A DNA stretch of 40,928 nucleotides from Klebsormidium nitens (GCA_000708835.1 DF237624.1:6138-47065); one strand, 5' to 3'. Counted from the stretch's first letter, positions 864-35,869 are shown. The notes: a model not told the origin generated them from the sequence alone. A program made the numbers and translations.

Positions 864-2351
864 CTGCTGATCCAGAGTACAGAGTCGCGTGGCCGGGATC
901 TCTTGCGCACAGTCGAGCATCACGGAGATGGACGACTGGACGAAGCAACGAATCAGCGGGCTCTCCGTTTTTCGCACCCGCAGCGTTGCCTGCCAGGCCG
1001 CCCGAGCCGTCGTGCTCATCTTGCACATATAGAGGAACTTGGTATGGAACTAAGGAATGTCAAAGTTCACGCCAGCCTCAACCGTGGGGCTGTACATGAG
1101 CAGTCGAACCTTCCAACTCTCTGCAACGTTCTTGAGGAGAGCAGTGGTTTCGCCCCCACTCAAGGCCTTGTGGATGAGGATGTCCGTGTCTGCGAGCCGA
1201 AGCGCATGGTGCGACGTGACCCGGTCCCGGATGCGGTCCAGGACCTTCGCGGACATGCTGACAACGACCACGTTCTTGCCAGCTGCGAGATCCTCGATGA
1301 TTCGATCCAACCACTTCTTCTCATCCTGACTGACACGGAACGTCAGAGGCACCTGCGCATAAAGCGGTTCAAGAAATGAGCGCGGTGTGGGCTGAATGTG
1401 GTGAGAGAGCATTTTTCACTGGCGCGTCCTTGATTCCAGAAGTGAACCGGCTGCGCTATGAAACACAACTTCCATTAGTACTTAAGTGACGGTATGGCCG
1501 GGCCCCATAACTGGTTTAAGAGGTGCTGCATCTAAGGTGATCAACGCAACACACTTGCTTAGGGGAACTCAAGGAAAGGGCCTGGCAGAAGGCCCGAGAT
1601 TTCTGATTCGCAATTCCGCTCCGACCCTCTCAGGTGCACCAAGGGAGCGGCCAAAGCAAGGCATGCTGCATTCTGGGCACTTCAAAGCACACAGCATCCG
1701 AACAGGCCAGAATTTCAGCAGTACTCCTTTCAATGCTGGCAACACTAATCAGACGGGATTTTCGAGGGGCTTACCGCTGCCCTTCTTGTGTTGATGACGA
1801 GCTTCCCGGGCACGTGAGCAAGCTGAAAGAAGTCGTGCTCCCGCTGCCCGTACCCATCGTCCATGGCCAAAACGCGCTTCGCCCGCTGCACAATCTCCAG
1901 GAACAGCTCACTGGTCTCCATCCCGTTCCTCACGGTCGCCGCGGAGAGGTGCGCCAGGATGCTCGCCACCTCGTCAAGGATCACGAGATCGAACGGGGCC
2001 ACCTCGCCAATGCTGCCCCGCCGGAGGTTTAGGAGGCTGTCCACCTGAACAACGATTTCAGGAAAGTCCTTTCGAGACTGCAGAGCCGTTAGAAGGTTGT
2101 GCTTGTTGTCAGGATCCGGGAACCACACGTTCTTGTGATCGTAGTCGGCCTTCAGGTCGAGGTAGTTTGCAGTGCGGGGAAAGCGCGCTTTGAGGTCTTG
2201 AGCCTGGGCCACTCGGTACGTGATCATGATCGACGTGTGGGCGCGGCCGCTCGCTTGCCAGAGCTCGTCCCCAACCGCCCCGCAGAACACCGTCTTGCCA
2301 GTGTTCACGCCCGACCGGATGCCGAGCAAGCGGAATCTGCCCTCGATCCAC
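864..2351 (-). CDS. UL9/origin-binding-protein-like SF2 helicase domain, left copy (exons 2351-1775 and 1352-864)
   Basis: Walker A RSGVNTGKT, motif Ia ITYRVAQA, Walker B LVILDEVASILAHL, motif III AMDD, and LLMYSPTVEAGVNFD. It aligns with the right copy throughout. TAG at 1050-1052 sits where the right copy has Trp. Confidence 0.85.
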
Positions 2352-2965
2352 CTGCACGTGTCGACCACGGAGTTGTCAACACGACCTGACACACTCTGAG
2401 GAAGGAAATAGGCCAACGTTCTCAACAAAGGTTGGCTATGCAGTGGCCTCTTGTTTCGAACGTGTCGATTCCACTGGCAACCAGCTCCGAATGGTAGGTA
2501 AGCGTTCAGAAATTTGTGTATACGGCCTGAAATTGAAAGCTTGCAGCCCTGCGTTGATCTTAGTGCGTTGATCTTAGAACAGACACGTGCCATTAAATAG
2601 TGGTCGCAAATGCCTTGAAAGGAGGACACGTGACAGGAGGACACGTGACAGGAGGACGATCGTCAGGTTTTGCGCACACACTTATGGCAAAAAAAGAAAA
2701 CCTGGTGGGAAAAAGGAGCCCTGGCAGTAGGTGGGCGCCAAGGAGCGCCCGCTGATACAGCACGCAATCATGAAAATAGACACATGGTACAAGAAAAGCT
2801 CCTTGTAAAGGTGAGCGCCCCGGAAGCGCCGCAAGTCTCGCAACACGTTCCATGTTGTCCCCAATTTTCGCCACGTGGGTTTGCGGCCGAAACCAGAGCT
2901 TGCCAACCTAGCAGATTCTGAAAGCTTGTCACATCACAATACCTACTCATTTGGCGACTACTTAC

Positions 2966-3491
2966 TCGTTGGCGACGGTGTTTAGCTTCATCAGATCGTT
3001 CGGCATCCTCCGCCCCGCTGCTACTTCGGCCACGAGCTCAGGGGTCGACGCGCCAGGGACACGCGTCAGGTGCTCCATGTCTACCTTGACGGCGCCCGTC
3101 TCGTACGAGATGTTGTCCTCGAACAGGTCCCCTAGGCAGTATGCCCTCTCGACACAGGGAACGTCCGAGTCCCCACCCTCAGTGTTTTGGCTGAAACACA
3201 GAGCATAGATCTTGCCGTTTGGGTTGAGGTGACAGGTTATATTCTGGCGGTTCTCGTGATCCGACCCGTGTAGCACGGCTCCGTCCGATCGCTGTAATTA
3301 TAGCGATCTGGGCCCTCCTCGTAAGCGCTAGGGTGCAAGCGCTCCCTGAGCAGCGCTAGCATGCGGGCCTTGACGAACTCCTCGTTCTTCGAGCTGCGCT
3401 CTGTGCCCCGTTCGGACATGACACGAGGGTTGCTGAACTTCTCGTGGAGCCTTTGGGGCACTTCGAATGGCAGCTTGACCTCGTCACGGGC
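2966..3491 (-). CDS. Exon encoding the primase-associated Cys/His (Zn-binding-like) segment, frameshifted
   Basis: EPCYTGR-x-HENRQNITC...YALCFS...C aligns with right-copy EPCYTRHTHSGGRDLLC...FAKCSS...CC only if one base is restored at ~3259. The exon is 526 nt, and 527 nt is needed to satisfy the flanking splice phases. Confidence 0.7.
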
Positions 3492-3789
3492 CTGCAGTAC
3501 AGCACGAAGGCAGCTGATTACAAGCGCATTCGTGCCAAAACTAAGTCGCCCTGTCAAAATGTGAGGAGGAAGCCGAGAAGAAGGTCAAGACAATTCGTCA
3601 ATCAGAGGAAGCCTTGCACTGTCGTGCTGCAAAAAACCGTGTGCATCAAAGGCAACGAATCCCCTAAGCTTCACAGCTGTTGAGAATCGAAAACGAGGAG
3701 TGCGCCTCAAGCAAGGTCCTTCATTCTGCAATTGTGAAGGCCGCGCTTCAAGAAAAGACTGCTCAGACTTGCCGCAAAATCCACAGTTT

Positions 3790-3864
3790 GTACCAAGAAC
3801 GCTGTATTTACTTTCTTGAGAATCTAATGGGCCTCTTCTAGTACATCCTGCGGGTATGGCCGGG
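3790..3864 (-). repeat. Solitary family-A cassette, inverted, in the intron between the AEP and Zn exons
   Basis: gtaccaagaac...ttctagtac followed by tatggccggg, the reverse complement of the array unit. Confidence 0.8.
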
Positions 3865-3997
3865 TAGCCCATCAAGCGCAAAATCCGCTTCGAAGCAGGA
3901 AGGGCCGTATAAATTCTGAAGAAGTAACAGGCCTGAGAGAAGAACCCTGAGAGATGACCGACCTAGCGAGTGGCGAGTGTGGATCTTGGGCGCTCAC

Positions 3998-4874
3998 CTC
4001 GGGGGGCTCCAGCCAAGTCACCAGAGCGTCCTTCCAGGAATGGGCCGGATCGATGTACGACAGGACGCTCTCCGGCTTCTCGACCTTGGCGCTCCCCGGC
4101 GTCCGCCACTCGCGGTCCTTTGTGTACACGTTCAGGTCGATGAGAGCCGCGACCGCAGGATCAAACTGAAGCGCCCTCTTCTTGAGGCGCCTCGCAAAGT
4201 GGAGAGCCCCCTCAGTGTTGGAGCCGAAGACAAGTTGACGGGGAGACAGCTGGTTGATCGTGAGGTGGAGACTGAACTTGGTCTGGCCCGGGCTCTCGAT
4301 CCAGACGAAGCTGCTCGGATGCAGCTCACAGTCGTACTGTTCCTTGAAGACGACACCGGCCCACTTCTCAATGATCCGAATCACTTCCTCCGCCCCGTAC
4401 CTCTCCCCATCCTCAACCACCTCCCCGTCCGCTCCGACCACCGGTTGGCGCCTAAAAGGGAGTCCGTCCGTGCCGTCCAGATCGAGGTAGGGTTTGCAGG
4501 GCTTTCCGTTCTGGATGATCTCGGTCACCGACCCGTGCCGCCCCTCTAGATGCGACCGCGCTGTCTCCCAATCGGGGTACGAACCGAAGCTGCGCCACGG
4601 AACCCTCACCCCGTCTACGACCGCGCCGGACCACTTGTGCAGGACCACCTGCGCCTCGTGGTTCAAGAGCGCCGCCTCCTGCTGCATGAAGAACTTTGGG
4701 CCGGGGAGGCGGCCCCTTGGGTTGGCCCCTCTCTGATGGAAGCAGTTGGTGCCGTGCTCCCGCACACGCAGCACCCGGAACCCGTCCTTCTTGAAGACCT
4801 CGTTGCCAGTCAGCGGGTCAGAGTGCACCGCAGGCTCAGGCACCGCCGCAAGGTCCTCGCGCGCCACTGGAGGT
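3998..4874 (-). CDS. Archaeo-eukaryotic primase (PrimPol/NCLDV-herpes primase-like) domain, left copy
   Basis: Motif I PCKPYLDLD, motif II KFSLHLTI, motif III LIDLNVYTKDREWRTPGSAK. GC-rich exon with clean splice sites. Confidence 0.85.
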
Positions 4875-5285
4875 CTGCATAAGCGATGTAGGAACATTCA
4901 AAACGCTGCAACACTGGCTTGCCTTCGACCGTGCTCATGAATGAGTAAAACGTCAAATTTCCTGTGCAAGTGACACTTGTTGAGATAAGTTTATGTTAGT
5001 GGACGGGTTTGTGGTGCGCCAAAAAGCCTCGCTGACCATGCCTCTCCAATTACAGAGAATGATTGAGGAAGCAGATTCTGAAGCACCGCAGCACTCAACG
5101 AGCCGGCCGACCTTCTAGCAATGCACGCGGATACATGTCGGCAAAGAGAGGATGACAGACTTATTCCTCGGACATGTTGGATGGCAGATACTGGCTGATG
5201 TACACTTTGCACCATCCGAGTGATACAGATTTTCGACAGGGTATGGACGGCCCCAGCTTCCGACCATCCAGCGCACCATGGGGAT

Positions 5286-5368
5286 GTACCAAGAAACGCT
5301 GAATTACTTTAAAAGATTCTAACGGGTCCTTTCTTGGTACACCTTCAAGTTGCAGAGTATGGCCGGCC
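5286..5368 (-). repeat. Solitary family-A cassette, inverted, in the intron before the AEP exon
   Basis: gtaccaagaaa...tttcttggtac (perfect 11-bp inverted repeat) followed by tatggccggccc. Confidence 0.85.
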
Positions 5369-5490
5369 CAACTTTTAAGCATCCAGCGCACCCTGCAGAC
5401 ATCGGGCAGCCCAAGATAAGTGCAAGTAAACTGCAAACCCCACTGAACCTACAAAGTTTAGAACAATCTTGGCAAAGGGTAGCTACTTAC

Positions 5491-5774
5491 ACAGAGGTCG
5501 CTGGCGCTTCATCCGGGGCTCGCCTCCTCTGCATCTCCCTCCGCATGGGCGCTAGCGCTAGCGCCTCATCCAAGGTCTCGTCCCCCTCGAGCCGAGCTGC
5601 CGCTTCCTCCATCTCCATCTGCCGGTACAGATCCCGCATTTCAGCGTCCGGCACCGCCGAGTCGTCGATGCCCCGGTCATCCTCGGATGTGGGCTCTTCG
5701 TCGGACTCGGTCTCGTCTGATGTCTCTTCGATGTCGAAAGAGGCACCCTCTTGATCAGACGTCGCGGCAGCTTC
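5491..5774 (-). CDS. Acidic low-complexity exon upstream of the primase exon
   Basis: GC-rich D/E-rich frame (EETSDETESDEEPTSEDD) with a ttgcag acceptor. Its phase-2 gtaagt donor matches the phase-2 acceptor of the AEP exon. Confidence 0.6.
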
Positions 5775-6111
5775 CTGCAAGGAACGCCAACGGATCAATT
5801 CATGGACGCTGCTCAATTGCGGTCGGCAAAAGCTGGCAATAGGGATCTGCTCGCAGAGAATGGTGAGCCCAAGGCAAAACATGCCTGGCGCCGGGTTCGG
5901 CCTGATCATGCCTCACTGCCTCTCCTCAAACGCGCACGCAGCATCCCGGTCCGTATCCTAGTACCGCTAGGCGCCGGAGAGCTCTCCCTGCTCGGGGCCG
6001 TCCTCTTCCGACGCCCGACCTCCTGCATCCAAGCATCAGGACACTCCCGTTTCAGTGCAGGGCTCTCCTGAACTTAGGGAAACACCTCGGCGCTCAAAGG
6101 TCATCATAATC

Positions 6112-6651
6112 ATGGGCTGTGAAACCGAGTTCACGGGCAGCTTCGCTCTTTCACGCCCTCTGACCGCCGAGGAGAGCGCAATTTTGAAGGCTGTGCACGA
6201 CTACCGCCCTCAGGATGGCTTGAAGCTACCCTCTGCGGCTCCGGGTCAAGAGCGCCCGGTCAAGATCGTGCGGAAGGGAGTCAACCCCTACTACGGTGGG
6301 GAGGGATGGCACATCTTCAAAGAATTTCCCTCCTTCGACTGCCGTTGGACCGTCTCACGCGACAGGCGCGCACTTGTCTGGGACGAGAAGGGTCCCTTCT
6401 ACAACTACGTCAGCTGGCTCGAGTACCTCATCTCCCATTTCTTTGCGGTCTGGGGAGTACAGCTGAGCGGGACCGTCACGTTGAGGGGTAACTGTTTGGG
6501 CGACACGGGGTCAATCGCGGTGAAAGGCTACCAGATCTTCGTCAAGATGACCCCAATCGTGGCAGTGCGTATCGCTGAGGAATCATACGACTACCCGAAC
6601 GAGGCATTTTTCGACTACACAAAGGGGGAGAGACTTTTATACTCACCGTAG
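6112..6651 (+). CDS. Intronless hypothetical protein of a phage/bacterial-type family, tandem copy 1
   Basis: MGCETEFTGSFALSRPLT...PSFDCRW...LVWDEKGPFYNYVSWLEYLISHFFAVWGVQLSGTV. It closely resembles the adjacent paralog. Family assignment is from recall and is unverified. Confidence 0.7.
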   Translation: MGCETEFTGSFALSRPLTAEESAILKAVHDYRPQDGLKLPSAAPGQERPVKIVRKGVNPYYGGEGWHIFKEFPSFDCRWTVSRDRRALVWDEKGPFYNYVSWLEYLISHFFAVWGVQLSGTVTLRGNCLGDTGSIAVKGYQIFVKMTPIVAVRIAEESYDYPNEAFFDYTKGERLLYSP

Positions 6652-6836
6652 GCGCAACCTCAGTAGCAACGGAGCGAGGCTGGCTGTCAGAATGCGGGTC
6701 GCTGCTGGAAGGGCCCGTCTCCTGCGAGACAACGAGGGGATGAAGGGTTCAGGGACAAAGGGTCCCGCGGACGATCCGATTTCGACCATGGACACAGGCT
6801 TAGGGAAACGCTTTGGCCCTCTTAGGGCATCGAATC

Positions 6837-7301
6837 ATGGGCTACGACACAAAGTTCACCGGCCGCTTTGCCTTTTCCCGCCCCTTGACTGCCGAAGAGA
6901 GTGCGACCTTGGCAGCAGTGCACGAACACTGTCACGAGGACGACCTAGAGCTACCTTATGTAGCTCTTGAGATTCGCCCAGTCAAGATCGAGCGAGAGGT
7001 GATCAAGCCCTTGTATGTGGGCGAGGGCTTCGACTACTTAACAGAAAAGTTCCCCTCTTTCTACTGCCAATGGACGCTGTCACCCAACAGGCGAGCTCTT
7101 GTCTGGGACAAAGGGGAAAAATTCTACGATTACGTGAGCTGGCTCGAATACCTCATCTCTCACTTTTTCGCCGTATGGGGAGTGCAGCTGAGCGGGACTG
7201 TCAAGTGGAAGGGAGTCAGTCGGGGCGACAGGGGTTCGATCAAGGTCGAGGGTGATAAGATTCTTGTCAAGATGCCTCTAGCCAAGAAGGACTCACCGTA
7301 G
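6837..7301 (+). CDS. Intronless hypothetical protein of a phage/bacterial-type family, tandem copy 2
   Basis: MGYDTKFTGRFAFSRPLT...PSFYCQW...LVWDKGEKFYDYVSWLEYLISHFFAVWGVQLSGTVKWKG. Upstream (ttagggaaac) and downstream (ctcaccgtag...) flanks are shared with copy 1. Confidence 0.75.
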   Translation: MGYDTKFTGRFAFSRPLTAEESATLAAVHEHCHEDDLELPYVALEIRPVKIEREVIKPLYVGEGFDYLTEKFPSFYCQWTLSPNRRALVWDKGEKFYDYVSWLEYLISHFFAVWGVQLSGTVKWKGVSRGDRGSIKVEGDKILVKMPLAKKDSP

Positions 7302-7439
7302 GTGTCCGCTCTGTAGCAGCGGGACGGGGATTGCTGGTAGGATGCGGGCCGCTGAAGGAGGGGCCTGTGACCTGCAGGACAAATGAAGGCAAGGGGCTTA
7401 GGGGCAGATCGAGTAGAGTAGAGAAGGCAACTTCAAACG

Positions 7440-7839
7440 ATGGAATGGTACAACGATGACGGTGCGGTCCGTTTGACTGAGCAGATCAAGAGTGCCTTTG
7501 CTCTTGGCGCCATCACGGACCCAGACACTCTAAGGGCAGCATCGATCTTTCACGATGTAGCCGCATGTGCAATCACACGCCTCTGCAGGAAAGAGCACGT
7601 GCATCGACTTGAGGGAAATATCCTGGCCGTGGCTATTTCGATGGTTCATGCAAGCGGGGGGTTTCGTGGCCTGGTCGATCGACGATGTTAGTGAATTCTT
7701 CGACGAGTTTCTGAACAGTGAAGTGGGCAGATTCGAGGAGTTCAAAGGCCAGCTTTCCAAGCGCATATGCCGCGTGGCGATTGAGGAATGTAAGATACTC
7801 GCCTCCCGGGCGACGCCTGGCGCAGTGAACGGCTCTTGA
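7440..7839 (+). pseudogene. Possible ~130-aa orphan ORF split by a 1-bp insertion in a G6 run
   Basis: ORF 7440-7691 joins the frame of ORF 7567-7839 (SGGFVAWSIDDVSEFFDEFL) if one G is removed near 7655-7660. No recognisable domain. Confidence 0.3.
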
Positions 7840-8312
7840 CCCTGCGGGTGACCCGCTTGCACTGCCGAGAGCGCCATCGCCTCTGCCACCCAGTTCGGAT
7901 TCGATTGCTGAGTGAAGAAAGGAGTGCGCAAAGAATCAGGTTGCGATCAATCGACTCCTCACATATGCCAGCTCTCAATACGGATGGGTGCAGATGAATG
8001 GGCGTGCTCAATGACAGCATCTCACACATGTGGGACCACGACAGCGACTGGAACTCACGCTTGCTTGCCACGTAGCAAATGGCTCGGTGCTGACTGGCTT
8101 TGACCTGACGCTTTCCTGAACCTCCTGCATGACATGGATTGCCAAATTATTCGTCATACTTGAATCACCCGGTCTATATCGACACTTTGCGGATGCCCGT
8201 GAGAAGGGGCATGGTGATTTTGGGGAGTGGCACTTGTAGCCTGGCGGTACTTTGTGTCATCCTGGGATGGAGGCATGAGGCAGAAAGCAATTTTTGCCTG
8301 CAAATAACTCAC

Positions 8313-8425
8313 CTCCGCGGTCGGAAGCTGAATCAGGGGCCGCCCGCGTGAGCTGCTCGGGGCGTTGGGGTCGTGTGTGGGCCACCCCGGGTTGCTTTCG
8401 ATGCCCCCGATCATCAGTTGTGTCA
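8313..8425 (-). other. Exon with a degenerate 2A-like sequence (V)TQLMIGGIESNPGWP
   Basis: Direct translation. It has the same splice phases (1 to 0) and a similar preceding exon end (SKSRALI vs SKSLI) as the NPGP exon at 22510-22565. Confidence 0.7.
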
Positions 8426-8799
8426 CTGCATCGCACCAAAGGGATCCCTCAATCAATCGTGCTCAGAATGGCATGCCCTGAAGAAGCCAGACTCGCGCAT
8501 TCAAAGTTTGATCGTGCCCAGAATGGCAAGCCTTCAAGTCGGACCCGTGCATTTGCTGTCTTATCAGCAAAGCCACTTGAAGCCTCTGCTTGCCAATGAA
8601 TGCTAGAGATCTGCCACCATACCTATTAGTGCCCTGCTCTTTGATGCCGAAGAGTAGTAGACCTTGTCCGACCCGCACTCGTACGCTGGAAATCCTGCGC
8701 GAGCAGAACGTTGGCAGGTAAGATTCAAGAGACATGCCACAATTTCAGCGGTTCTTACAAAGACAAGGCTCGCGGCGCTGCAGAGGCGCACACTGTTTT

Positions 8800-10450
8800 G
8801 AAGGGCCCGGCCATGCCCTGCAAGATGTACCAGAAAAGGCCCATTAGATTCTTTATAAAGTAATATAGCTTTTCGTGGTACACATGGGTTGTGCGCCGGA
8901 TGGTCGGACCATGCGCTTGATGGGCCACTGGCCAGCCCGGCCATGCCCTGCAGGATGTACCAGGAAAACGCCCGTTAGATTCTAAAGAAAGTAATAAAGT
9001 ATTTTTTGGTACACCCTCATTGTGCATCGGATGGTCGTACCCTGCGCTGATTAGCCAGCCCGGCCATGCCCTGCAGGATGTACCAGGAAAACGCCCATTA
9101 GATTCTAAAGAAAGTAATACAGCATTTCGTGGTACACCCTCACTGTGCGCCCGGATGGTCGNNNNNNNNNNNNNNNNNNNNNNNNNNNNNNNNNNNNNNN
9201 NNNNNNNNNNNNNNNNNNNNNNNNNNNNNNNNNNNNNNNNNNNNNNNNNNNNNNNNNNNNNNNNNNNNNNNNNNNNNNNNNNNNNNNNNNNNNNNNNNNN
9301 NNNNNNNNNNNNNNNNNNNNNNNNNNNNNNNNNNNNNNNNNNNNNNNNNNNNNNNNNNNNNNNNNNNNNNNNNNNNNNNNNNNNNNNNNNNNNNNNNNNN
9401 NNNNNNNNNNNNNNNNNNNNNNNNNNNNNNNNNNNNNNNNNNNNNNNNNNNNNNNNNNNNNNNNNNNNNNNNNNNNNNNNNNNNNNNNNNNNNNNNNNNN
9501 NNNNNNNNNNNNNNNNNNNNNNNNNNNNNNNNNNNNNNNNNNNNNNNNNNNNNNNNNNNNNNNNNNNNNNNNNNNNNNNNNNNNNNNNNNNNNNNNNNNN
9601 NNNNNNNNNNNNNNNNNNNNNNNNNNNNNNNNNNNNNNNNNNNNNNNNNNNNNNNNNNNNNNNNNNNNNNNNNNNNNNNNNNNNNNNNNNNNNNNNNNNN
9701 NNNNNNNNNNNNNNNNNNNNNNNNNNNNNNNNNNNNNNNNNNNNNNNNNNNNNNNNNNNNNNNNNNNNNNNNNNNNNNNNNNNNNNNNNNNNNNNNNNNN
9801 NNNNNNNNNNNNNNNNNNNNNNNNNNNNNNNNNNNNNNTTGTGCGCCGGATGGTCGGACCTTGCGCTTGATGGGCCAGGCCGGCCATACCCTGCAAGATG
9901 TACCAGGAAAAACGCCCATTAGATTCTTCAGAAAGTAATACAGCGTTTCTTGGTACGCCTGGATTGTGCGCCGGATGGTCGGACCCTGCGCTTGATGGGC
10001 CAACCCGGCCATACCCCGCAGGATGTACCAAGAAACGCCCTGTAGATTCTTAGAAAGCAATACAGCACTTCTTGGTACTCGAGTGCTCCCAAGCTGCTCC
10101 GCGCGCTGAACAACCACACACTGTTTAAGGGGCCAGCAGGGTTAACCAAGAAACGCCCTATAGATTCTTAAAGAGTAATACAGTATTTCATGGTACACGA
10201 GCCCTCCCAGGCTGCTCCGCACGCACACCCCGACACACAGTTCAAGGGGCCGGCCATACCCTGCAAAATGCACTTGGCCATACCCCACCAAAAGTTTGAG
10301 GGGCCCCTGCCAGCAGCCATACCTTGCAAAAACGTATCGAGAAACGCCCATTTGATTCTTAGGAAGTAATACAGCCTTTCTTGGTACACACCCCCGCACT
10401 CTGCAAGGCATCGCACCGTTCTGAGGGGCCCGACCAGACGTACCAAGATG
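8800..10450 (+). repeat. Tandem array of family-A inverted-repeat cassettes (~123-130 bp period), interrupted by an assembly gap
   Basis: Each unit has a CCGGCCATRCCC leader plus a ~55-bp core GTACCARGAAA...TTTCYTGGTAC. Cores at 8827-8881, 8957-9012, 9080-9135, 9900-9956, 10025-10078, ~10142-10196 and ~10334-10387. Confidence 0.9.
9162..9838. other. Assembly gap inside the family-A tandem array
   Basis: Run of N flanked on both sides by repeat units. Confidence 0.99.
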
Positions 10451-10899
10451 TACCAGAGAGGGCCAGGAATCTGATGTTTGAGGTGGGAGATGCAGGCATC
10501 TGTCACGAGGGGGCGCGCATGAGTCTAGGTAGTCGAAAGGGCGGGTTTGCCGCTCACCTTGGAACGCGCTCCTCACCAGCACGCTCCTAGTGGCAGTGGG
10601 CTGTGCCGCAAACGTGGCGCTCCTGCGTGACAGCGCGCACAGACCCTCTGCGCGGTGGACGGGAGGCTGCCCGGGCTGCGCCTCGTCACTGGCGGCGTGC
10701 TGATGGCAGGCTGCGCCAAGACTGCAGTCCGACTCAGAGTGGTCCCCAGTCGCACAGCGGGGGCCAGTGGTTGGGTCCAGGCTGTCGTTGACGTCGCAGT
10801 CAGCGCGCGCAACCCCTACAAGCGCTCGATGGGTCAGAAATGTTGGTCACGTGCAATCGACCGGGCGCCAAGTACCCTGCTCGAGACACTGCCGGCAGC

Positions 10900-12950
10900 C
10901 CGGCCATAACCCCCATGACGTACCAGGGTTCAAATTCTTAAGAGAAACACGCCACCTCCTGGTGACATGCTGATGGCGCGCTGGCCCGACCACACCCTCA
11001 AGGATGTACCGGGAAAGAGCCTTCAGATTCTCAGAATAAAAAGCAACTTCCTGGTTCGTGCTGCTGGCGCGCCCCGATTCGTGCTCGCAAGTAACAAAGG
11101 TCGGCTCCCATGCTTCGCGCCGTCACTGAACCAAGGCCAGGGAAATGCAGTGCAGCACAAGGGACTGCAAAACGCTCACCTTGCGATCTGCTGAGCACCG
11201 GACGACGGCTGCTCGTGGCAGGAAGCCGCCCCGGCCGGAGGTTGTTTGACGGCGCGCAAAGGCCCTCACGTGCGGGGCGCTGCGCGTACTGCGCCTCGTC
11301 GTTGCTCGAGCTGGCGGCGGCGCGCTCGTGCTGTGAGGGGTCCAGAGTAGGATGAGTCGCGGCAGCGGCGGAAGGCTCGTCTGCATGGCGCGTGCCGTGA
11401 ACGCCGGTGCCTTGAGATCCTGCGCACGATGTCTCGTGAATCTCACATGATCCGCCCCAAAGATCAAGAGCATGCAAGCTGTCCGCCCGTGACCGGCAAA
11501 GACGCCACTATGTGGTACATGCTCATGGGGCTGCGGGCCCGGCCACAACCCCCAGAATGTATCAGAGAGCTGCCTAGTAGTCTCTGAAGAAAGATTGAGA
11601 TGATCTTTGGTACACTTCATGAAAGCTGCAAGCCCAGCCATACCCCCAAGAATGCGCCCGGCCATACCCCGCAAAATGCACCCGGCCATAACCTACAAGA
11701 TGTACCAAGAAAGGCCCAATAGATTCTTAGAGAATAATACAGCTTTTCTTGGTACACAACCCTTCTCTGCCCCGCATGCGCCACACCGCACAAGGGGCTA
11801 GCCATACCCCGCAAGATAAGTGAACCAGGAAACGTGCCAATAGATCCTTAAAGAAGAAAACAGCATTTTCCTGGTACACTCCCTTTTGTCGAAAGTCGCA
11901 CACCGGCCATACCCTGCAGAATGCACCCAGCCGCACCCCCCAGAATGTACCAGAAAACGCCCAGAAGATTCTTAACAAACAATACAGCGTTTCTTGGTAT
12001 ACGATCGTGATGAGAAGCAGGGTTGGTGTACCGAACAACGCTCTTCCTTGGTACACTGCTTTTGGGGGCGCCGCATCAAACCTCTTCAGATGAACCAAGA
12101 ACCAACCTTCTGTGTTCAACATCACACCTCCAGGAGTTATTGGATGTCGCGCAATCACTTTCGATCTGCCAGCCAGGGTGCAAGCTGATGGGCGCTTGCC
12201 TCAGTGATTTCTCATGTGACAATCTCGGGCGCTCACCTGCTGCTGCGATCCATGACTGAGGAACAGCAGATGACCCAGCTCCCTTCTGCAGCTGCTCGCG
12301 TTTAGGACAGGCATGGTTTGCCTTCCTTCGCGCCTTCTCGCGCCCCTGAACCCATGCTGCAAAAAGAAGAGGGTAGGGTCAGCGCGTGCGCTGGTGGGCC
12401 TGCAGCCGTGCAAAGACCTGCACGATTCAAGGTCGGGATGCGGGATGCTCAGACACGATCGAGATGTGTGTGTGTCTCGGAACCCTTACCTGCACGGTCG
12501 CTGTCGATCTTGAAACATCCCTTTGATGGCCCGTGGCTATCGCAGAAGTATGCGACCGCCCCTCCCATCTTGCCCCCGCGGAGCCCATACTCCGCGGCCG
12601 TCTCGCACTCGCGGCAGTAAATGGCATGCGGGTCTAAAAAGAAGAGAAGAAGAAGACTTAGGGAATCATGCAGGCACAGGACCGATTCCAACCCACCCCC
12701 CTGCGTACAGGACCGGCCATACCACCAAGTTTCGGCGCTGTACCAAGAAACGACCCATTGATATCTAAAGAAAGAATTGGCCAGAACATGGTACACCTCT
12801 CAACACAAGCCCGGCCTGCCTTCAGACTCTGGCGCCATTGTTACGTTTTAGGGCACGCCAAGCCATGCCACTCAGTTTTGGCGTTGTACCAAGAAATGAC
12901 CCATTGATATCTTTAAGAAACAGTTGGTCAAATCTTGGTACACCTCTTAA
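10900..12950 (+). repeat. Further dispersed and degenerate family-A cassettes in introns
   Basis: Copies near 10920, 11005, 11570, 11702-11755 (perfect 11-bp inverted repeat), 11822, 11946, 12028 (short), 12740 and 12885. Confidence 0.85.
12490..12633 (-). CDS. EsV-1-7-like Cys/His-rich finger exon, left module
   Basis: CRECETAAEYGLRGGKMGGAVAYFCDSHGPSKGC fits a CxxC...A.YG...Y.C..H pattern. The 144-nt exon equals the paralogous exon 21698-21841 in length and phase. Confidence 0.6.
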
Positions 12951-13886
12951 CCCAAGCCCAGCCATGCCACGAAGAATTTCCAGAAGGTTCTGCTGATCGA
13001 TTGTGATGAACGATGATCAATCCGCCGTTGTAAAGAATACCCTTCCTGAAACAATTGTATGTTCGATAGGCTGATGTCCTGCTCTTCATCAAAGAGTGAA
13101 ACACAATGATCCTTAATCCTCCTGCTTGCGAGCCAGCAACCGAGAATTCGCTGACCTTAAGAGCTGGCTTTCGAAGAACCAAACAAACGGTCTTTTGCTC
13201 ACCGCGTCCTGCATCCCAATCCAAAGCTTCTTTGAGCACCCGCGCACTGTGACGCTTTGCTTTCTGATCAGCAGCGCTGAAGCGCCGACCTCTTGGAATT
13301 CTGCGAGCAGGCTGCCCTTCATACTCTACCCCTTTTAAGCTCTTGCACCGCCGCCGGCGAGGGACAGGAATGTCATTGCTTCGCGAATCGACAGCAACGA
13401 TTAGAAACTCCTGCCTTTCTGCACTAATTGTGATGCGCTCCCTGTACTCTGCGGCGCGCGCAAAGCGTGCAGCCTGGCAGACCCTGTGATCAGACTTGAC
13501 CCTGCCACAAGGCCGGCTTGTCGCCATTTTCTAACAAGCACTAGCTCCGCTGGTCACATTTGCAACCACACGAAAGAGAGGTCTGAATTGCCCACAGCGA
13601 CTGAGGCACAATTTAACTCAGAGCAGACCCACAGCTTCAGAACAGAGCACAATACTGAAGTGTCAGAGCAAGGCACATTGTTTGCCCCCAAACGCTCAAG
13701 CAACTCCAGAGACATGGTAATGATGGATTCTAACTCCCAAGTAGGAAAGGCTGCCAGCGCAATCACTTACTCCAGGCCTGAAACGACTTGACCACTTGGC
13801 GCTTGCAGCTCCGCCCGGCAGTTGCTATTAGTATTTTACTCAGCTTTGCATGAGGCAAGTTGCAGCACATTGGCAGCTGGAGACTA

Positions 13887-20098: not shown

Positions 20099-20806
20099 TA
20101 ATTTTGACCAGTGAGAACCTGACACGTGTCCCTCCGAACAAATATTCCGGAACTTCCTCCAATTCGCTTGAGGTTCGAGCCCAGTCAGGGGATACTGTCA
20201 CCAAGCAGACCGTTCCCATCACAGGACTTCGATAAAAGACGACGTCGTTTGATATTGATTAGTTCCAGCTGAGTCTCCATGGTTACCTCTGGTACCTTTA
20301 AGCGGTCAGCGTTTAGACCTCCTGCTAAGGGTTGACATCGCTAAAAGCGGCCGGGCTTTAGGGAGCTGCAGGGCAGCTTGGTGTGGCTCAGGGCTTTCAG
20401 GTTGCCCGGCAAGTTGGTGCACAGGAAATGGCATTCTGCGGACTGCTGTAGTGGCGCATCTCTGAAGCGCGTCTGAGGATATTGTGAACGTAAGTTGCTT
20501 ATCTGGTTGCCGCAATGCGCACTCGTGATATAGAACAATGTGTCAGGCAGAGGTTGGCTCTGCCGCTTTTGGACCAGCTTGAAGTATGCAACTGAGCGAC
20601 TCAGTCTGAAGAAGGTGGATGCGGTTTTTAAGGGTTGTTCCTCGGGTCTTTGTAAGTCTGCACTGGTGAGAGTTGCATACGCAGTAAAGGGCAAACGCCT
20701 CGAAATTGGTGCATCTGGATGTTTGTTGAGACAAATTATCATTGAGTCTCCTATATTCCTCTTGGTTTTGTAGGGGCAGGAAAGCTGGTCCTTGCACTGA
20801 CTCATC

Positions 20807-23800
20807 ATGGCTAGAGGCCGGCCTCATGGCCGGTCCAAGTCCGATCACAGAGTCTGTCAGGAGGCTCGTTATGCACGAGCCGCTGAGTACAGGGAGAGAA
20901 TCGCCATCAGTGCTGAGCAGCAGGAGGCACGCATTGCTGCTGTGAATGCTAAGTGCAACATGGAGGATGCCCCTTGTAGGCAGCGGGGGCAGAAGTCGAG
21001 GGCGTCGAAGACCAAGGCAGAGGCGGCTCGGATGTTCACAGGGAGCCGTGCTTGCAAAGAGTCTGGCAGTGCAAGGAAGAAAGCAAAGAAGGGCCTCGAA
21101 CATTCGCTTGGCAAAGCTGCAGAAAGAGGTGAGTTCTGGTGCATGGCTTCTCTGATTGGTTTACCTTGTGAAGCCGAGGCAGAGCAGAAGCTTGAATGCT
21201 CTGTGCTGCAAGATAGAAAGGTGACTGGTGGGCTGGTGCAACATGTACGAAGAAGAGCATCTCGGTGTAGATGGCGAGAGAAATGAAGCTGGTACACTAC
21301 TTTGGGTAGTGCGGTCAGAATGGTGAAGGATGGCTGGCTCTGCAGTTAAGAACAGGGTTCTGAGGGGTTTTAGCGTGCATGGCCGTTTTTAGAATGTAAC
21401 AGACTTTGCCTCTTCCTCTTTGGAAAATGAGAGGCTAATTCTTGGTACAGGCTGTCTATCACAAAGTTGTAAGCAGTCTTAGCGGGCATGGCCGCCCCTG
21501 GGGTGTACCAAGCTTTGCCTCTTTCTCTAAGGGATATAAGAAGCTCATTCTTGGTACACGCTGGCACTTACACAAACCTCCAAACCTTCCACTGCCGAAG
21601 AAAGACTGCAAAAGGCTGGGGCATGCACCAAGTCTTGCATGCTTTTCACATCTACACTCCAGGTTCATCACCAAACCCCTGCGCTTCTTCATTGCAGACT
21701 TGCACAGTCTTCACTGCCAAGCGTGCGGCGCAACTGCAGAGTATGGGCTGAGGGGAAGCAAGGAGGGGGGCAGCGTCAAGTACACGTGCAGAGCGCACAC
21801 CACATTGAATGGTTGTTTTCGAGTCGACCGAGACCGCGCAGGTGCGAGCATTCGGGGAGCCTGCTCTTGACATGGTCTGCATGCAATGCAACGCTCATAG
21901 CTGCTCTCCCATTGGTTAGCAGTGGGCTTTTAGAAAAGACTGCCAAGAGATCTACAGCTCTGTATGCTTTGCAGGTTGGGCAGAGGACCAAGAGATGCGG
22001 CGCCTGAGAGCACAGGAGAGGAGATTGGAAGAGGAGCTGCGGCAACTCGGAGGGGCCTCGTTCACTGCAAAATCGACATCAGGTGGGCGTGTGGCGCGAT
22101 CTTTCCTCTCAATGGTGCTCTTGTTTTAACTGCATGGGGCAGTGAGTTCCCTTGCATGCCCTTGCCTCGTCATTGATTTCCTTGCTGTGTAGTGATATGT
22201 GATGCTTTTGTGATGGCTAATGAGTCCCTCCACTGTTCTTCTGCAGCTTGGAGTGAGTCGCAAAGTACGGGGGATGGGGCTTCAGTGCCCATGAGCAAGT
22301 CGCTCATAGGTAAGGCGCTTTGGTTGCGGTTCTGAAGCTGCAATCACTTGTACGGCTGTTGGGCTTGCTCTGTGTTTCAAGCGCTTGTAGCACTTGGACT
22401 AATCCTACTAGACGGTTCTAAAGACTTGCATGGTGGTCTTCGCTCGTGCCCTGATGAATCGAGCTGCTTCCAGCATTTAGCAATTTAACCTGTTGTTTTT
22501 CATGTGCAGCCACACTTCTCATGATTGGTGGTATTGAAGTTAACCCTGGACCTACTGCATACGAGGTGAGCCTGGAAAAGGTATTCTGCAGTTCAAGGAG
22601 GGACTGGTAAGCACTAGTTATACTCGAATAGCAGGAAGCTTCTTCTTGCTCAAAGTCCATGCCACTGAGAGAGCAGGCAATAGATGTTGTACCAATCATC
22701 AATGTCTCTTGACCACAGATTGCACAAAACAAAGAGAGCTGGCTAGGAGCTTATCCGGACATTGACAGAACGCTGCTGGATTACCTGGCACTGAAGAACA
22801 TCAGGTTGGCCAAGTGGAGAGAGTCCACATCCGAGCAGCGCTCCAGTCTTCTAGACCTGTGGGCACGCCGGTACACTGGGGAATGGTTAGGGGACTGGGA
22901 CATGTTCCTCATAGGGGTTCCGGGTAAGCAGCTCCCTCTTCTGAATCAGTAGGCTACCTTCGATGCAATCCGCTTGAGATCAGGACTAGAGGTTTCCATG
23001 AATTCAGAAACGAGGATTTGAGCTTTCCGGTGTTGCTGGTCAGCATGTAGCGGCGGGGAAGCTTGGAGAAGATGGCATGACATGGGCCTTCTGCTGATTG
23101 GCAGTGTTGACAGGTGACACAGTCGCTTCTTTGTCGATCTTGCCGAGGACACTGTTGCATGCTGGGCATGGAGTGTTTCCTAGCAAAAGCGGAGTTGCTC
23201 TGGAGCAGAAAGTGGCCTGCTGTGCAATTGTTGGCAGACCAGGTGCAACTCATGAGCAGTAGGGTGCTTGTCAGCCACCCCCCTCGTGCAATCTGCCAAA
23301 GGCTGGTTCTTCACTTGGCTTGCTGTCTTCGAAGCTCATCCACACGAGACCCGGATCTGCTTATCCTTCTGCTACAGCAGTTGCAAAGAGGGGTCAGGAT
23401 GTAGGAGCGGGCCCATCTGCCGATGTGGAGATGAAGGATGTCAATCCAGGGAACCAAGTTGGTAAGAGCCACTGTTCGGTCTGTATGGTGCAAGGCCTCT
23501 TTTACAAATTGCTTCTGGCAGCTTGTGCTTGCCTCAGTGTGCTGACAATCTCATGTAGTCACTCGAAAGGAGAACGCATTGCTTCTGTATGCAGTACATA
23601 GAGCGCCCCAGCGCAAGGCAACTCCTGACTGCCAGTTTGTGCTTGCAGGCAGGAGTTATGACACGTTTGTTGCCGCACTTGGCGCAAACAGCGAGGGGAT
23701 CAACAAAAGAAGAGCAAAGGGGGGCATCTTCACCCCTCGAATAGAGACAGTCCACAAGATCTTGTCGCGCTTGCAAGAAACGCTGGTGTTGCTTCTGGCA

Positions 23801-26397
23801 GCAACTCCGTGCTCGGGGAAGACGTCCATCTGTCAGCTCGTGTACGAGGAGGCAAGGAAGAGCCGGGTTTATGAGTCTGAGGATGTCATATACGTCAATT
23901 GCGCCGAGGTAGGAAGTGGGGGAAAGTCGTTTGAGGATGTGTTCTTGGAACAAGCCAGAGTTCCCTTCAACGAGGCCTCAAAGTCGCCCCCGAGCAGTCC
24001 TGAGAAGCAGCTGCAACGGTCGGCAGGCGATGCGAGTGGCTCCCAGGCTCCGCTATCCAGGAAGAAGCTCATTATTCTGGATGAAGTGCAGACAACGTAC
24101 GACACAAATGCGCCGGGGCACTCTCTCCTGTGGCCGCTGCTCAAGCGCTTGCTGGCTAGCAAGCAAGGCGACGTTAACTTCCTTCTGTCAGCATCCAGGG
24201 GCTCCAACCCCGCTGCTGAAGGTCTGCTGAGCACCCCCTGGGGGTTCTCTGATGATCAGCGTGTCCCTCTCAGGTGAGGCCTCCCCTGGACAAGCAATGG
24301 CTCGTGCCCTCCAGAATGCCCTCCCGTTTTACTTTCTTAGCAAAGATGCCGTCATACTGGAAAGGGTCTGGCTCTTTTGAAATTGACAAGCGGATAGATC
24401 TCAACTCTGGAAACAGCACAGCTGATTGTGCCATGCAGGGTACATTTTCACACGTCCCTCCTCATTGCAGGCCCCGCCCCGATCACCCAATGGTGGCAGG
24501 CAGCAACATCCCAGAGCCAGCGTTGCAGTTCACAATGGACGAATTCCAGCAGCTGTTTGACTCTTTCCGGAAAAGCATCGGGTTTGGTGGGGAACAGCAA
24601 CCGCTTCAAACGCTGTATGACATCATTGAGGCGACCACGGAGCGGCACCCTGGAAGCGTCCTCCACATCCTGGATGTTCTCAAGGGTCGCTCTCCATCCA
24701 ATTACGCTGGCCGCGCAGCTGAGTGGGCAGCCAAGGAAGTGGAGTTTGTGATATCTCCAAGACTGCTCGAGACTCTGTCTGGTACAAGGTCATTTCCAAC
24801 GTAAGAAAACCAAGCTCTTCTCTCTCTTATCGCAACCGCATGGTGGCGAGTAACTAGCATTGCCTTTTGAGAGTCAGCAAACAGTCTGGCTTACTTGTTC
24901 TATGCTCCCGCGCTTGCTTGTTGTCCTCAATGCCCGGGGTGACGCGTTAAGACACCACAGGCCCACACAGGCTGGCAGTCCATTACGTTGCTTGTGGCTG
25001 ACTCCCATATGTCTCTGTTCAGAGTGAGCGAATTTTGGAAAGACAAGAGGGCGCTTGACCTCATCAGCAAGCTGGTAGCATCCGGAGGCAAGGTAGGTAG
25101 AGGCGTTGAACCTGATAACTCCTGTGGCCTTATATCCACATGCATCATGGTGGTTGTGCACAAGTAGCGCTGTCCCTTGTTGGATCGAAGCCTCTCAGTC
25201 ACAACGCGCCTGTGTTGCAGGAAAGTTTGGTGGCGATCCGGAACGAGGATTCGGACTGTGCCGATAAGGCTGAGGCGCTTGCCAAATCGGGGTACATGCT
25301 CATGGAGCAGAATGTCGTCTCGTTCACCAGCAGCCTGCACATGGAGTTTTACCGATACAACTTGGCGAGGCGGAAGTGGGGCACACCCAAGTACATGCCG
25401 GGCTCCATTGAGACCTTCCTGGCTGAGGCCCTCACGAAGATGCATCCTCCTGTGCTTCAACACAGTCTGAACCTGAGCACCCGGTGTGGTGTCCTGGGGG
25501 GTGTTCTGGAAGCACACTTCCAGTTCGAGCTGTACTCGTGAGTTTCCCTTATAACATGTCATTCGCATTTGAAGCGATTAGGCGATGCTGTCAGTCTTAA
25601 ATGGTTTTGATATTGTGCTAAGCAGACTTGACACCTTCAAACGTCTCCACCATGGCCCCAATGCATTAAGCGCCAGACAGGCGCACAGTTGAGGTAGTTT
25701 CGTCGGCTGTAGATACAAGCAGACTGTAACGTCCTCTTCTTGTTTGATACAGTGCCATCACCAGCCTCCTGCCAGAAGGTGACTACCTGTCACCAACTGT
25801 CGGCAAGATATATGGGCTGGAGGCCTATGTGGATTTTGTGCTGCATGGGTCTAGGAAGTGGGCGCTCGAGCTTTTGGTTGACGGGAGGGATCTGAGAGAG
25901 CACGAAAGAAGGTGCGCTCTGCAGTGCTGTGTCTTCCTCACATTACTAACGAAGTCTTAGAGGACCTGCCTAGCACGAGCAAGCACGATGACTACAGTTG
26001 TGTTTAGGCTAGCAAGACGAGATCGTAACGAGTGATTAGTTCTATGCAGCCTCACTAGCCACCAGCATCGAACACCTTGCTCCTTGATGTGCCCCATGAT
26101 TGAAAAGAGTCTCCGGATGAGGAGCACAACTTCAGCAGTGGCTTCGGCATCTTTCTTGCTCATTCACGTTTGCACTCCTGCAGGTTTGAGCCGAATGGTA
26201 GATACCACCCAATGGTATTGGGCAAGCAGATTGATGCCTGGATTGTGGTGGACCTGCGGAACCCAAAGACTGGCAAGCCGAGACGCGCGAGGGGGCCGGG
26301 AGTTTGCCACGTGTTCTTTGATCCAACTTACGAAAGAGCCACGATTGACTTCGGTAATGGTAACGAGCAGCATGTGATCCTTACAGGTCGGGCGTAG
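20807..26397 (+). CDS. Predicted 898-aa polyprotein: basic/EsV-1-7-like Zn module - 2A-like (GGIEVNPG/P) - CR header - CR NTPase - CR REase
   Basis: 13 GT-AG exons, all phase-compatible and stop-free: 20807-21128, 21698-21841, 21975-22082, 22247-22309, 22510-22565, 22719-22923, 23378-23461, 23649-24273, 24471-24800, 25023-25092, 25221-25537, 25753-25911, 26184-26397 (2697 nt). Motifs ATPCSGKTS, IILDEVQ, EAHFQFELYS, VDFVL..WALELLVDG..EHERRF. Confidence 0.8.
21380..21560 (-). repeat. Two degenerate family-A cassettes in intron 1 of the right module
   Basis: gtaccaag...cttggtac at 21505-21557 and a second copy ending ttcttggtac near 21450. They are in the same intron as the pair at 12740 and 12885 in the left paralog. 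Confidence 0.7.
22510..22565 (+). other. 56-nt micro-exon encoding the 2A-like core (A)TLLMIGGIEVNPG/PTAYE
   Basis: Direct translation. The G/P junction is at 22550/22551. Canonical 2A is D(V/I)ExNPG/P, and here G replaces D. Confidence 0.8.
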
Positions 26398-33900: not shown

Positions 33901-35869
33901 GCTCTAGGGGAGGGCAAGAACTGCGTAGTATACAGCATGTCGTCAGAAGAAGTGTACAGGTTGAGGGACGCCGCGGAAGCCACAGGCTTGCTACAAGCTT
34001 CAGAGATACTCGCGATCACAAGGGCTTCTTCTGGGGACATCAAAGGGGGCATGAATAACGTGAACCTCTCTTGGAAACGCCGTTTGGTCATCCTCAGCCC
34101 CACGGTGGAGGCAGCGGTCGACTTTTCGGCGGAGTGGTTCCATCGCAGCTTCATCTACGTCTGCGCACACAGCACCACTCCGAGGGGCTTAGATCAGATG
34201 AAGAGCCGCGTTCGGAAGCTGAAGGAACCAGAAGTGTTGTGCTTCGTGCAAGCTGGCATCGCTTTGCCGACCAGGACCGGGCTGCGCGCTCAAGTTGCGT
34301 GCGATGAAGGTGAATCTATAGCCACTGCGTATTTGCTTGTTGTACCAACGGATCTCATTTGTTGCCAAGTACCGAAGTTTTGGAAAAGCATGACCGAGGA
34401 AAAGGGCCGAGCCTGGGCTTAGGGTACGTGAGATGTTTTTGTCGACTCCAGAGTGCTCACGGCGGGAAGTCACGGTCGTCCAGTTTTTGTCAATTATATA
34501 TATGCCTCTCTGATGCAAAACCTGGACAGCTGCACCAAGGAGGACAGCTGCAGCAAAACCTGGACAGCAGCTTTGCTTGTCTATATTTTGTCCATTGCGG
34601 AGGCACGAGCTCGCATTTATGGACATTTTCGAGAAACAGGTCGGGCCGGTAGTAAGCAGCACCTTCGATCTGAATCTATCAAACGTTTATTCTTGTACTC
34701 CGCGTGCAGACCCTGTGGGCTCGACTCCGCCTGTCTACCTGACTACCATGGGGCCCAAACAAGCAGCAAGTCGGCGGCTGGGGGTAGAGGAGTCCTATCA
34801 GTTCTTGCGTTGGATACACAAGAACGTGGACGCCCGTCAGGAGACGAGGCAACGAGGGGAAGGGGGACAGAGCATCTTCGCGCCGATAGAGGACGCTGTA
34901 ATGAGGGTGCTAGCACACAACGAAGCTGAAAGCAGCAACAAGAACTCGCACTTCTATGAAGTCTTCACTGAGTTGCTCGAGAGCGAGGGGCATATTGTGA
35001 AGGGGGTGCTCCAGTTGGACACCGCGCCAAAAGTCTTGGCTGGCCCGGAAGAGGACGAGGAGGGGCCTTGTCAAAGCTATCTAAAGCGGCGTCTGCTGGA
35101 GGCGCCAGACATCTCGCTCGAGGAGGCTAAGCACCTTCAGCTTCTGATTAACAAGAAGCAAGATCGGGAGGGGGACTTTGCGAAGGTGGAGCGGTTCAAC
35201 TATATGAGGTTTTACAAGATTCGACAGCTTGATGGACCCTTTCTAGACATCTTTGGGGGGCGGCATCTCGACTGCCTCACCTTCCTGCTTCAAGTGGTCG
35301 ATCCTGCATATCAATTCCCCGAGGACGAGATCGGCAGAGCGAAGTCCTTGCCTCTCATGGCAAAGCTTGCGAAAGAGGTCATTTGTGCACTGGGGCTCGA
35401 CAATCCGTTGGACTATGAGCGCGTGACAGAAAAACTTGAGGTTCTGAGGTCGAAACTGGCGGCAACGGAGTACTTCCAGGACTACGGAAGATGTGTTCGA
35501 CTGTTCAGCGGACGCACCATCCAACAGACGTGCGATCTAGGCGATCCAAAGGCAGTCTACCACGCCTTAAACCACATCTTCAACCGAATGGGCGTCCATG
35601 TGCGGCAGGTGCGGTTGGGCCAGCAGAAGAAGGCTGACGAGGCTACCAAGAAAAGGGAGTACCTGTATGGGGGATGGCAGATTGAGCCTGAGTGTTCAGG
35701 AAGAACCGTAGGCGCAAAGTACATGTTACAGTTGCTCATGTTGCAGGTGGAGGGGTCTTCATTGATGCTCGAAAATCTGGACTCAAGCCTAAGAAGGCTC
35801 ATAGAAAACGCGCCGTTCCAATACAGGCATCTTGTAGAAGCCCCATGCATGTTGGGGGCCGTAGTTTAG
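27933..35869 (+). CDS. Spliced AEP primase - Zn-binding segment - UL9/OBP-like SF2 helicase - C-terminal domain, right copy, apparently open
   Basis: Exons 27933-27964, 28281-28503, 29102-29287, 30351-31112, ~31721-33040 (across the gap), ~33272-34309 and 34710-35869. Motifs PCKPFLDME, KFSVHLVI, LIDQSVYTRNRGIRMPG, RSPMGTGKS, VTYRQTQA, LVILDESESILAHL, ILSPTVEAAVDF. The 33040/33272 junction and the start are uncertain. Confidence 0.8.
28120..34527. repeat. Family-B inverted-repeat cassettes (~50 bp, GTCCAGGTT...AACCTGGAC), 7 copies, all intronic in the right primase-helicase gene
   Basis: Copies at 28120-28169, 29314-29365 (inverted), 29390-29435, 29496-29545, 29634-29683, 31429-31478 and 34478-34527. 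Most share the inner CTCTGATGCAA. The copies at 29496 and 29634 lie in a 138-bp tandem duplication. Confidence 0.9.
32075..32760. other. Assembly gap whose flanks overlap by an identical 102 bp
   Basis: 31973-32074 is identical to 32761-32862. Collapsing the overlap keeps the reading frame. Confidence 0.95.

Follow-up and report, generated by a model that had tools for sequence, protein, structure and literature searches.

Does a nuclear gene of the streptophyte alga Klebsormidium nitens encode a StopGo (2A) peptide, and can it do so from a coding sequence that is interrupted by an intron? The question is raised by a stretch of 40,928 nucleotides (GCA_000708835.1 DF237624.1:6138-47065; "the window", from whose first letter all positions are counted), which is eukaryotic, has a G+C content of ~53% and contains two gaps of N. 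A preliminary description of its sequence had pointed to a 2A-like peptide split by an intron in a plus-strand gene that we call gene A. We put the probability at about 0.8 that the spliced gene A mRNA encodes a StopGo/2A peptide, with the predicted release of a 226-residue protein followed by a separate 672-residue AAA+ ATPase. In the six-frame translation of the window, the pattern [DGCN][VI]E.NPG[PMW] has two matches, one in gene A and one in a second gene on the minus strand (gene B), compared with none in 300 Markov-1 simulated windows.

The peptide, whose residues we number p0 to p19, is encoded by two exons of the plus strand. The last 16 nt of exon 4 (22294..22309) code for p0-p4 (SKSLI) and supply the first base of codon p5, a GT..AG intron of 200 nt in phase 1 (intron 4, 22310..22509) lies inside the 2A coding sequence, and the first 44 nt of exon 5 (22510..22553) code for (A)TLLMIGGIEVNPGP. 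Exon 4 (22247-22309) ends with ...TCGCTCATAG/gtaagg, also read as ...AGCAAGTCGCTCATAG/gtaagg. Exon 5 (22510-22565) is preceded by ...catgtgcag/ and opens with CCACACTT... (CCACACTTCTCATGATTGGTGGTATTGAAGTTAACCCTGGACCT). Joined in phase 1, the two exons read ...VPMSKSLI-A-TLLMIGGIEVNPGP-TAYE, with IAQNK continuing from 22719, and the spliced 2A reading is ...SKSLIATLLMIGGIEVNPG/P. The core octapeptide GIEVNPGP is encoded in exon 5 at 22530-22553, and the predicted skip point lies after the Gly codon (22548-22550) and before the Pro codon (22551-22553).

We rebuilt gene A with 13 exons, in which all introns are GT..AG with a strong splice consensus and the open reading frame (ORF) of 898 codons has no stop through and past p19. 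The 2A occupies residues 207-226, behind a conserved N-terminal module ("N-module") encoded by exons 1-4 (20807-21128, 21698-21841, 21975-22082 and 22247-22309). Skipping at Gly226/Pro227 would yield 226- and 672-residue products, and the model and the two product sizes of the preliminary description were thus reproduced. The predicted upstream product is read from exons 1-4 (20807..22309) and exon 5 to 22550, and the predicted downstream product from 22551..26397 (the remainder of exon 5, 5b, to exon 13), with its stop codon at 26395-26397.

For the splicing of these exons we examined four sequencing runs from four studies. None is registered as RNA, and their RNA origin was judged from spliced contigs. 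They were drawn from 16 runs in which 0.52-0.61 of the words sampled from a 5.8-kb stretch were present, vs 0.92-0.94 in the best DNA-type runs; one further DNA-type run of the same sample contained 0.53 of the words. Contigs of all four runs carry the joint 22309/22510, which skips exactly 22310-22509, so that the intron coordinates given in the preliminary description turned out to be exact. Ten of the other 11 introns were found spliced in 4/4 runs and intron 12 in 3/4. The exact joint of intron 1 occurred in one run, and the others have one extra letter there, which probably comes from paralogues; a bin wholly within this intron (21133-21343) had zero depth. Since spliced contigs arise only from RNA, gene A is both spliced and expressed. 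A chance match or a gene-model artefact is practically nil in probability: it is ruled out by these joints, which include the 2A intron and all of its neighbors, by the simulated windows, and by the retention of the motif in 18 of 19 paralogues (see below). Two minor observations were made in the same contigs. A loose end at 20774 matches 20462-20490, which places an intron at 20491-20773 in the 5' untranslated region of gene A, and one contig of run X9 keeps intron 5 (22566-22718), leading to a stop 14 codons past the exon end.

If intron 4 is retained, translation meets a stop 8 codons into the intron. Hence, the 2A peptide can be translated only from spliced mRNA, as the preliminary description had claimed for the residues that would sit in the ribosome exit tunnel. 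This claim stands with a nuance, however, because 44 of the 60 nt of 2A coding sequence, namely those for p6-p19 and two thirds of codon p5, form one uninterrupted block in exon 5, and exon 4 contributes only p0-p4 and the first base of p5. In the structure of 2A from FMDV (foot-and-mouth disease virus), p6-p19 is the portion that is resolved in the ribosome tunnel. The intron marks the 2A host as an ordinary intron-bearing nuclear gene.

The published data on the core are in good agreement with a StopGo function. Li et al. (PNAS 2026, PMC12846837) have widened the core to (D/G/C/N)(V/I)ExNPGP, a definition that GIEVNPGP satisfies. The Gly at the canonical Asp position, p12, to which the preliminary description had drawn attention, is indeed present, but it can no longer be called non-canonical. 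The same authors cite an earlier proof that the D12G variant works, and among RNA-virus ORFs they count 1,207 single-mismatch octapeptides with Gly at p12 vs 908 exact D(V/I)ExNPGP (PMC12846837). Their L-rich upstream motif 5 ends in (A/G/S)G at p12 (PMC12846837); LLMIGG of gene A, which is L-rich and has GG at p11-p12, fits the text description of this motif. Dataset S1 of that paper contains LLMIGGIEPNPGP, LLMIGGVESNPGP and LLNIGGVERNPGP in RNA-virus contigs, and LLMIGG occurs in it six times (PMC12846837).

The mechanism is established for FMDV 2A (PMC12846837): from within the exit tunnel, the growing peptide distorts the peptidyl-transferase center, the peptidyl-tRNA(Gly) is hydrolysed rather than bonded to Pro-tRNA, and translation resumes from Pro. 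If gene A follows this course, the intron would be irrelevant to the skipping step because the signal acts as a peptide. Skipping would be expected to take place on Klebsormidium ribosomes, and the two products of gene A would act as separate proteins.

Comparison of the gene A peptide with its paralogues lends further weight to this reading. We found at least 19 proteins that span the motif position, namely gene A, P0001-P0006, P0008, P0009, P0011, P0014, P0019, P0024, P0104, P0138, P0140, P0142, P0157 and P0165. In searches with exon 8 and with paralogue P0002, the N-terminal part matched K. nitens proteins only; nine of ten clusters checked by name were assigned to K. nitens, and one was a JGI record. 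The StopGo core is intact in 18 of the 19 proteins, P0014 having two intact copies, and it has decayed in both copies of P0019 (GCVECNPGL and GGIEFSSGP). The motif-anchored comparison covers 17 proteins, to which P0014 and P0019 were added for this tally. It shows a conserved block from ~p-4 to p18, in which L3, L8, E14, N16, P17 and G18 are invariant (17/17), S0, G11 and G12 are nearly so, and I4 and I10 are found in 15 and 14 of the 17 proteins, respectively. Position p15 is variable (2.09 bits), most flanking positions have ~2-3 bits, and p19 is only P (12 proteins) or W (5). This is the StopGo rule, position by position, which supports the description of the element as a 2A-like peptide. 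Between genes A and B, codons p8-p18 contain seven synonymous differences, one nonsynonymous difference (at p15) and three identical codons, and the predominance of synonymous changes argues for selection on the peptide and not on the RNA. Natural variants with W at p19 gave 91.5% separation in reticulocyte lysate, and NPGW has 49 occurrences in Dataset S1 (PMC12846837).

The preliminary description had proposed to check the peptide in reporters, and in effect this has been done at high throughput. Snell and Matreyek (bioRxiv 10.64898/2026.06.17.732966, PMC13405545) assayed 20-mers ending in NPGP from annotated coding sequences by sort-seq in HEK293T cells. Row 2539 of their file 1 is the same 60-nt spliced coding sequence as that of the gene A 2A, and row 3143 of file 3 lists the exact 20-mer with values of 2.27/2.50/2.46 and the high-throughput class 'Skipping/Skipping and Falloff'; the values of non-skipping controls lie around 3 (PMC13405545). 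Nine family peptides are present in the supplement, of which six belong to skipping classes, one of these with reduced protein (PMC13405545). Three further family motifs were not found in the table, and NPGW peptides lie outside the NPGP-filtered library (PMC13405545). One member of the family, GAQ93188.1, carries the class 'skipping', and its structure is called as 'AAA+ ATPase domain-containing protein' (PMC13405545).

The same class labels allow for a different function, in which the 2A is mainly a translational attenuator: ribosomes would stall, the N-terminal product would be released and restart would be rare, or total protein would be lowered, so that the peptide sets the level of the downstream enzyme instead of yielding two proteins in comparable amounts. 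Falloff and reduced-protein classes are frequent among eukaryotic 2A-like peptides, one family peptide is 'Falloff Only' and another 'Skipping..., Reduced Protein Levels' (PMC13405545), and the label of the gene A 2A itself pools 'Skipping and Falloff'. We nevertheless regard attenuation as unlikely to be the main role, as 6/9 family peptides fall into skipping classes and what lies downstream is long, conserved and, in the P0002 model, folded with confidence, so that these parts are evidently made.

Several points weigh against productive skipping of gene A in the alga. The class of a peptide is the call of a support vector machine that re-classed 86% of its own training set correctly, the authors want individual confirmation of any single peptide, and family peptides have zero occurrences among the individually tested samples of file 2 (PMC13405545). 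Among the nine family peptides, two are 'Nonskipping Only' besides the 'Falloff Only' one, and a pair differing in a single residue (SQLLIA... vs SQALIA...) is split between classes (PMC13405545). The assayed length is only 20 residues, while full FMDV activity needs >30 native residues (PMC12846837). Furthermore, the decay of P0019 shows that at least one gene can do without the motif, and the support for skipping of the gene A peptide comes from HEK293T cells and from sequence.

Another explanation would be that no recoding takes place in Klebsormidium and that the motif is a linker or an interaction motif of a full-length fusion, perhaps a viral or mobile relic. The two nonskipping peptides, the origin of the skipping data outside the alga and the loss in P0019 are all compatible with it. 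However, the invariant and the variable positions alike follow the StopGo rule, including the free p15 and a p19 restricted to P or W; StopGo is active in all eukaryotic systems tested, plants included (PMC12846837); and the sort-seq class of this very peptide in HEK293T cells is a skipping one. We consider this explanation improbable, slightly more so than attenuation, and return to StopGo as the probable function of the gene A peptide.

The domains on either side of the 2A were analyzed in gene A and in an AlphaFold2 (AF2) model of P0002, which has a mean predicted local distance difference test score (pLDDT) of 70.5. The upstream N-module has no Pfam family and no usable ESM Atlas match. 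In the model it consists of a long helix (11-52), three short strands round a CxxC...CxxH motif (124-150, pLDDT ~82-86) and another long helix (153-181); that of gene A has a basic helix, Zn-ribbon-like CxxC...CxxH strands and a long helix. The 2A falls within residues 181-231, a stretch of low confidence flanked by confidently folded domains, which is the usual setting of 2A peptides (Rao et al., Cell Rep 2025, PMC12338488). Downstream follow a small helical domain (234-302), an ATPase domain and a confident C-terminal alpha/beta domain, with pLDDT >90 in the latter two. The corresponding parts of gene A (plus strand) are a helical linker domain (22719-22923), an AAA+ P-loop domain (23649-24273), and a helical middle part that is followed by the C-terminal alpha/beta domain; a restriction-endonuclease-like nature of this last domain was considered and dropped. 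The AAA+ match is to AAA_22 and stays below the cut-off (24.7 bits vs 27, E 3.3e-5). Foldseek with the P0002 model gave matches of low TM-score (E 1.7e-5 to 1e-3), namely the PAB2304 ATPase, ORC/Cdc6 and NLR chains, and a profile search of the sequences in the PDB gave only generic AAA+ matches.

In the family as a whole, the C-terminal parts are unrelated: they are AAA+ ATPases, other P-loop proteins (different ones in P0003, P0004 and P0019) or primase-like/helicase proteins (P0005 and gene B have the primase-like part). Pairwise identities disagree across the 2A. Gene A and P0002 are 48% identical in the N-part and 66% in the C-part, gene A and P0008 are 70% and 29%, and P0002 and P0004 are 89% and 36%, the last over only 89 residues; P0002 and P0005 are 68% identical in the N-part and have no meaningful match in the C-part. 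Because of this discord, we infer that the N-module and the 2A may have been exchanged as a cassette among unrelated downstream genes. Free of the cassette, the ATPase family of gene A is also found in Selaginella, Chlamydomonas leiostraca, Chlorokybus and a chytrid. It is conceivable, though we hold it only tentatively, that the N-module and 2A are a portable 5' cassette on at least four unrelated kinds of downstream genes (AAA+ ATPases of two sorts, further P-loop proteins and a giant-virus-like primase/helicase), which would produce the same small Zn-ribbon/coiled-coil protein and a free enzyme from each mRNA. If true, the plant lineage would have a gene family that is cellular, carries introns and resembles a bicistron. 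Trp is a destabilizing N-terminal residue under the N-degron rules. The enzymes of the NPGW branch would start with Trp, so that StopGo could also set the half-life of the enzyme.

The second motif match in the window belongs to this NPGW branch. It lies on the minus strand at 8405-8382, reads ...SKSRALI-V-TQLMIGGIESNPGW and ends in NPG/W, with the Trp codon (8384-8382) in the usual place of Pro. The 2A exon of gene B (8382..8425) codes for (V)TQLMIGGIESNPGW, and it is preceded by a 197-nt GT..AG intron (8426..8622) whose position, by codon and phase, is that of intron 4 in gene A. The joint 8425/8623 is spliced in 4/4 runs. Gene B (1500..13527) starts at 13527 and its exons match the protein P0011 (K. 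nitens KFL_006750025), with 100% identity in four of the tblastn pieces; by eye, the translation of exon 1 also agrees with the P0011 N-terminus. The window is therefore K. nitens DNA. The N-module (13527-13203, 12633-~12490 and ~12360-12236) is followed by a long low-complexity exon and then by the 2A exons. The annotated product ends at 556 residues, and the continuity of the ORF beyond this point is putative. RNA joints chain to about 2349, through a region resembling archaeo-eukaryotic primases (AEP) at 4873-3043, with a putatively open frame throughout, and a Herpes_ori_bp-like helicase ORF follows at 2662-1748 (32.6 bits, cut-off 20).

In the primase-like region of gene B, three motifs are conserved among three sequences as read by eye, and we take them to be the archaeo-eukaryotic primase motifs. 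The nearest ESM Atlas clusters of the corresponding ORF (3875-4897, minus strand) are AEP_C962R families of Nucleocytoviricota (24 of 30 hits, score 0.96), with recognition below the bar of the tool. A PHROGs search of the primase-like ORFs found nothing, and an AF2 model of the primase-like ORF built from a three-row alignment had a pLDDT of 40.6. The Atlas clusters hint that part of the gene family may be of giant-virus or polinton-like origin.

How does the gene A 2A compare with known ones? Viral class A 2A peptides with Gly at p12 (Li et al., PMC12846837) resemble it in the core octapeptide, in the L-rich hexapeptide ending in GG, in the near-identical strings of Dataset S1 and in the existence of a p19 = W variant. 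However, they sit in RNA-virus polyproteins, whereas the gene A 2A is in a nuclear gene with introns, in a streptophyte alga. The sea urchin type NLR genes are likewise a cellular multigene family of P-loop NTPases, about 35% of which (85/241) have a 2A-like peptide upstream of the NTPase (Roulston et al. 2016). The 2A of those proteins is N-terminal or nearly so and also serves as a signal sequence, whereas that of gene A follows a module of ~200 residues with folded elements; moreover, the downstream parts of the gene A family are of several unrelated kinds. As for a NACHT domain downstream of the 2A, as in the sea urchin NLR, gene A gave only the sub-cut-off AAA_22 match, and the P0002 model matched NLR chains at low TM-scores. 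The 2A of APE-type non-LTR retrotransposons (Odon et al., MBE 2013, PMC3708506) is similar in being genomic and ahead of an enzyme part. Unlike these elements, gene A has 12 introns in its coding region, and Pfam searches found no APE endonuclease or reverse transcriptase in nine gene A exon translations (E up to 1) or in six paralogues (E up to 0.01).

The exact 20-mer with its HEK293T score is already in print in a preprint supplement, and the element is thus real but already known. Among eight Viridiplantae rows of Table S2 of Rao et al., two are from one Klebsormidium protein, in which LLRGGVESNPGP occurs twice at positions fitting P0014, with the activity given as N/A (PMC12338488). File 4 of Snell and Matreyek includes a related 2A-like peptide, ...LLLRSGIEKNPGP, which follows a coiled coil in K. 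nitens GAQ92643.1 and is classed as skipping; the top Foldseek afdb50 match of that protein is an Ndc10 domain-containing protein (PMC13405545). This peptide points to further 2A contexts in K. nitens. The word 'Klebsormidium' is absent from the main texts of the 2A literature searched, including those of Rao et al. and of Snell and Matreyek, and 'intron' has no occurrence in the main texts of Li et al., Rao et al. and Snell and Matreyek and one in Roulston et al. 2016. In the literature searched, we found no description of the architecture of the family, of the swapped N-module cassette, of the members with NPGW or of the conserved intron. What is added here is the splicing and expression of the gene, the conserved intron, selection at the peptide level in ~19 paralogues, the NPGW branch and the cassette-like architecture. 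According to published accounts, StopGo is rare in cellular genes or missing from them, and plant viruses make no use of it or almost none (PMC12846837). A streptophyte alga with about twenty expressed 2A genes is a natural system in which to study what a cell gains from ribosome skipping, and a whole branch with Trp instead of Pro in the restart position, together with the discord of N- and C-part identities, is a context worth following.

The window as a whole is a cluster of NTPase and replication-type genes. A Pfam search of 70 long ORFs gave only two Herpes_ori_bp matches and one NACHT match below the cut-off; the latter is a NACHT-like P-loop ORF between the two genes (18066-18887, minus strand, 25.5 bits vs 26.7). 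On the plus strand, 30306-35866 contains a second primase-like region, 36% identical to P0005 in the C-terminal part of that protein, and behind it a helicase ORF that resembles Herpes_ori_bp (52.6 bits, PHROG 'replication' E 1.2e-16). No N-module or 2A was found upstream of it by tblastn, and the literature search on endogenous giant viruses of Klebsormidium yielded nothing usable.

A palindromic repeat of ~60-95 nt, GTACCAAGAA...TTCTTGGTAC, which resembles a miniature inverted-repeat transposable element, is present in many copies, mostly in introns of genes A and B (3808-3854, 5254-5331, 8778-10464, 11658-12028, 12716-12963 and 21352-21569), and forms a 109-nt tandem pair in intron 1 of gene A. 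One of the N gaps (9162-9838) is within an intron of gene B. The other (32075-32760) lies between perfect 102-nt direct repeats (31973-32074 and 32761-32862) and looks like an assembly artefact. A second, hairpin-like repeat of 50 nt, GTCCAGGTT...AACCTGGAC, occurs in five copies at 28120-28169, 29496-29545, 29634-29683, 31429-31478 and 34478-34527.

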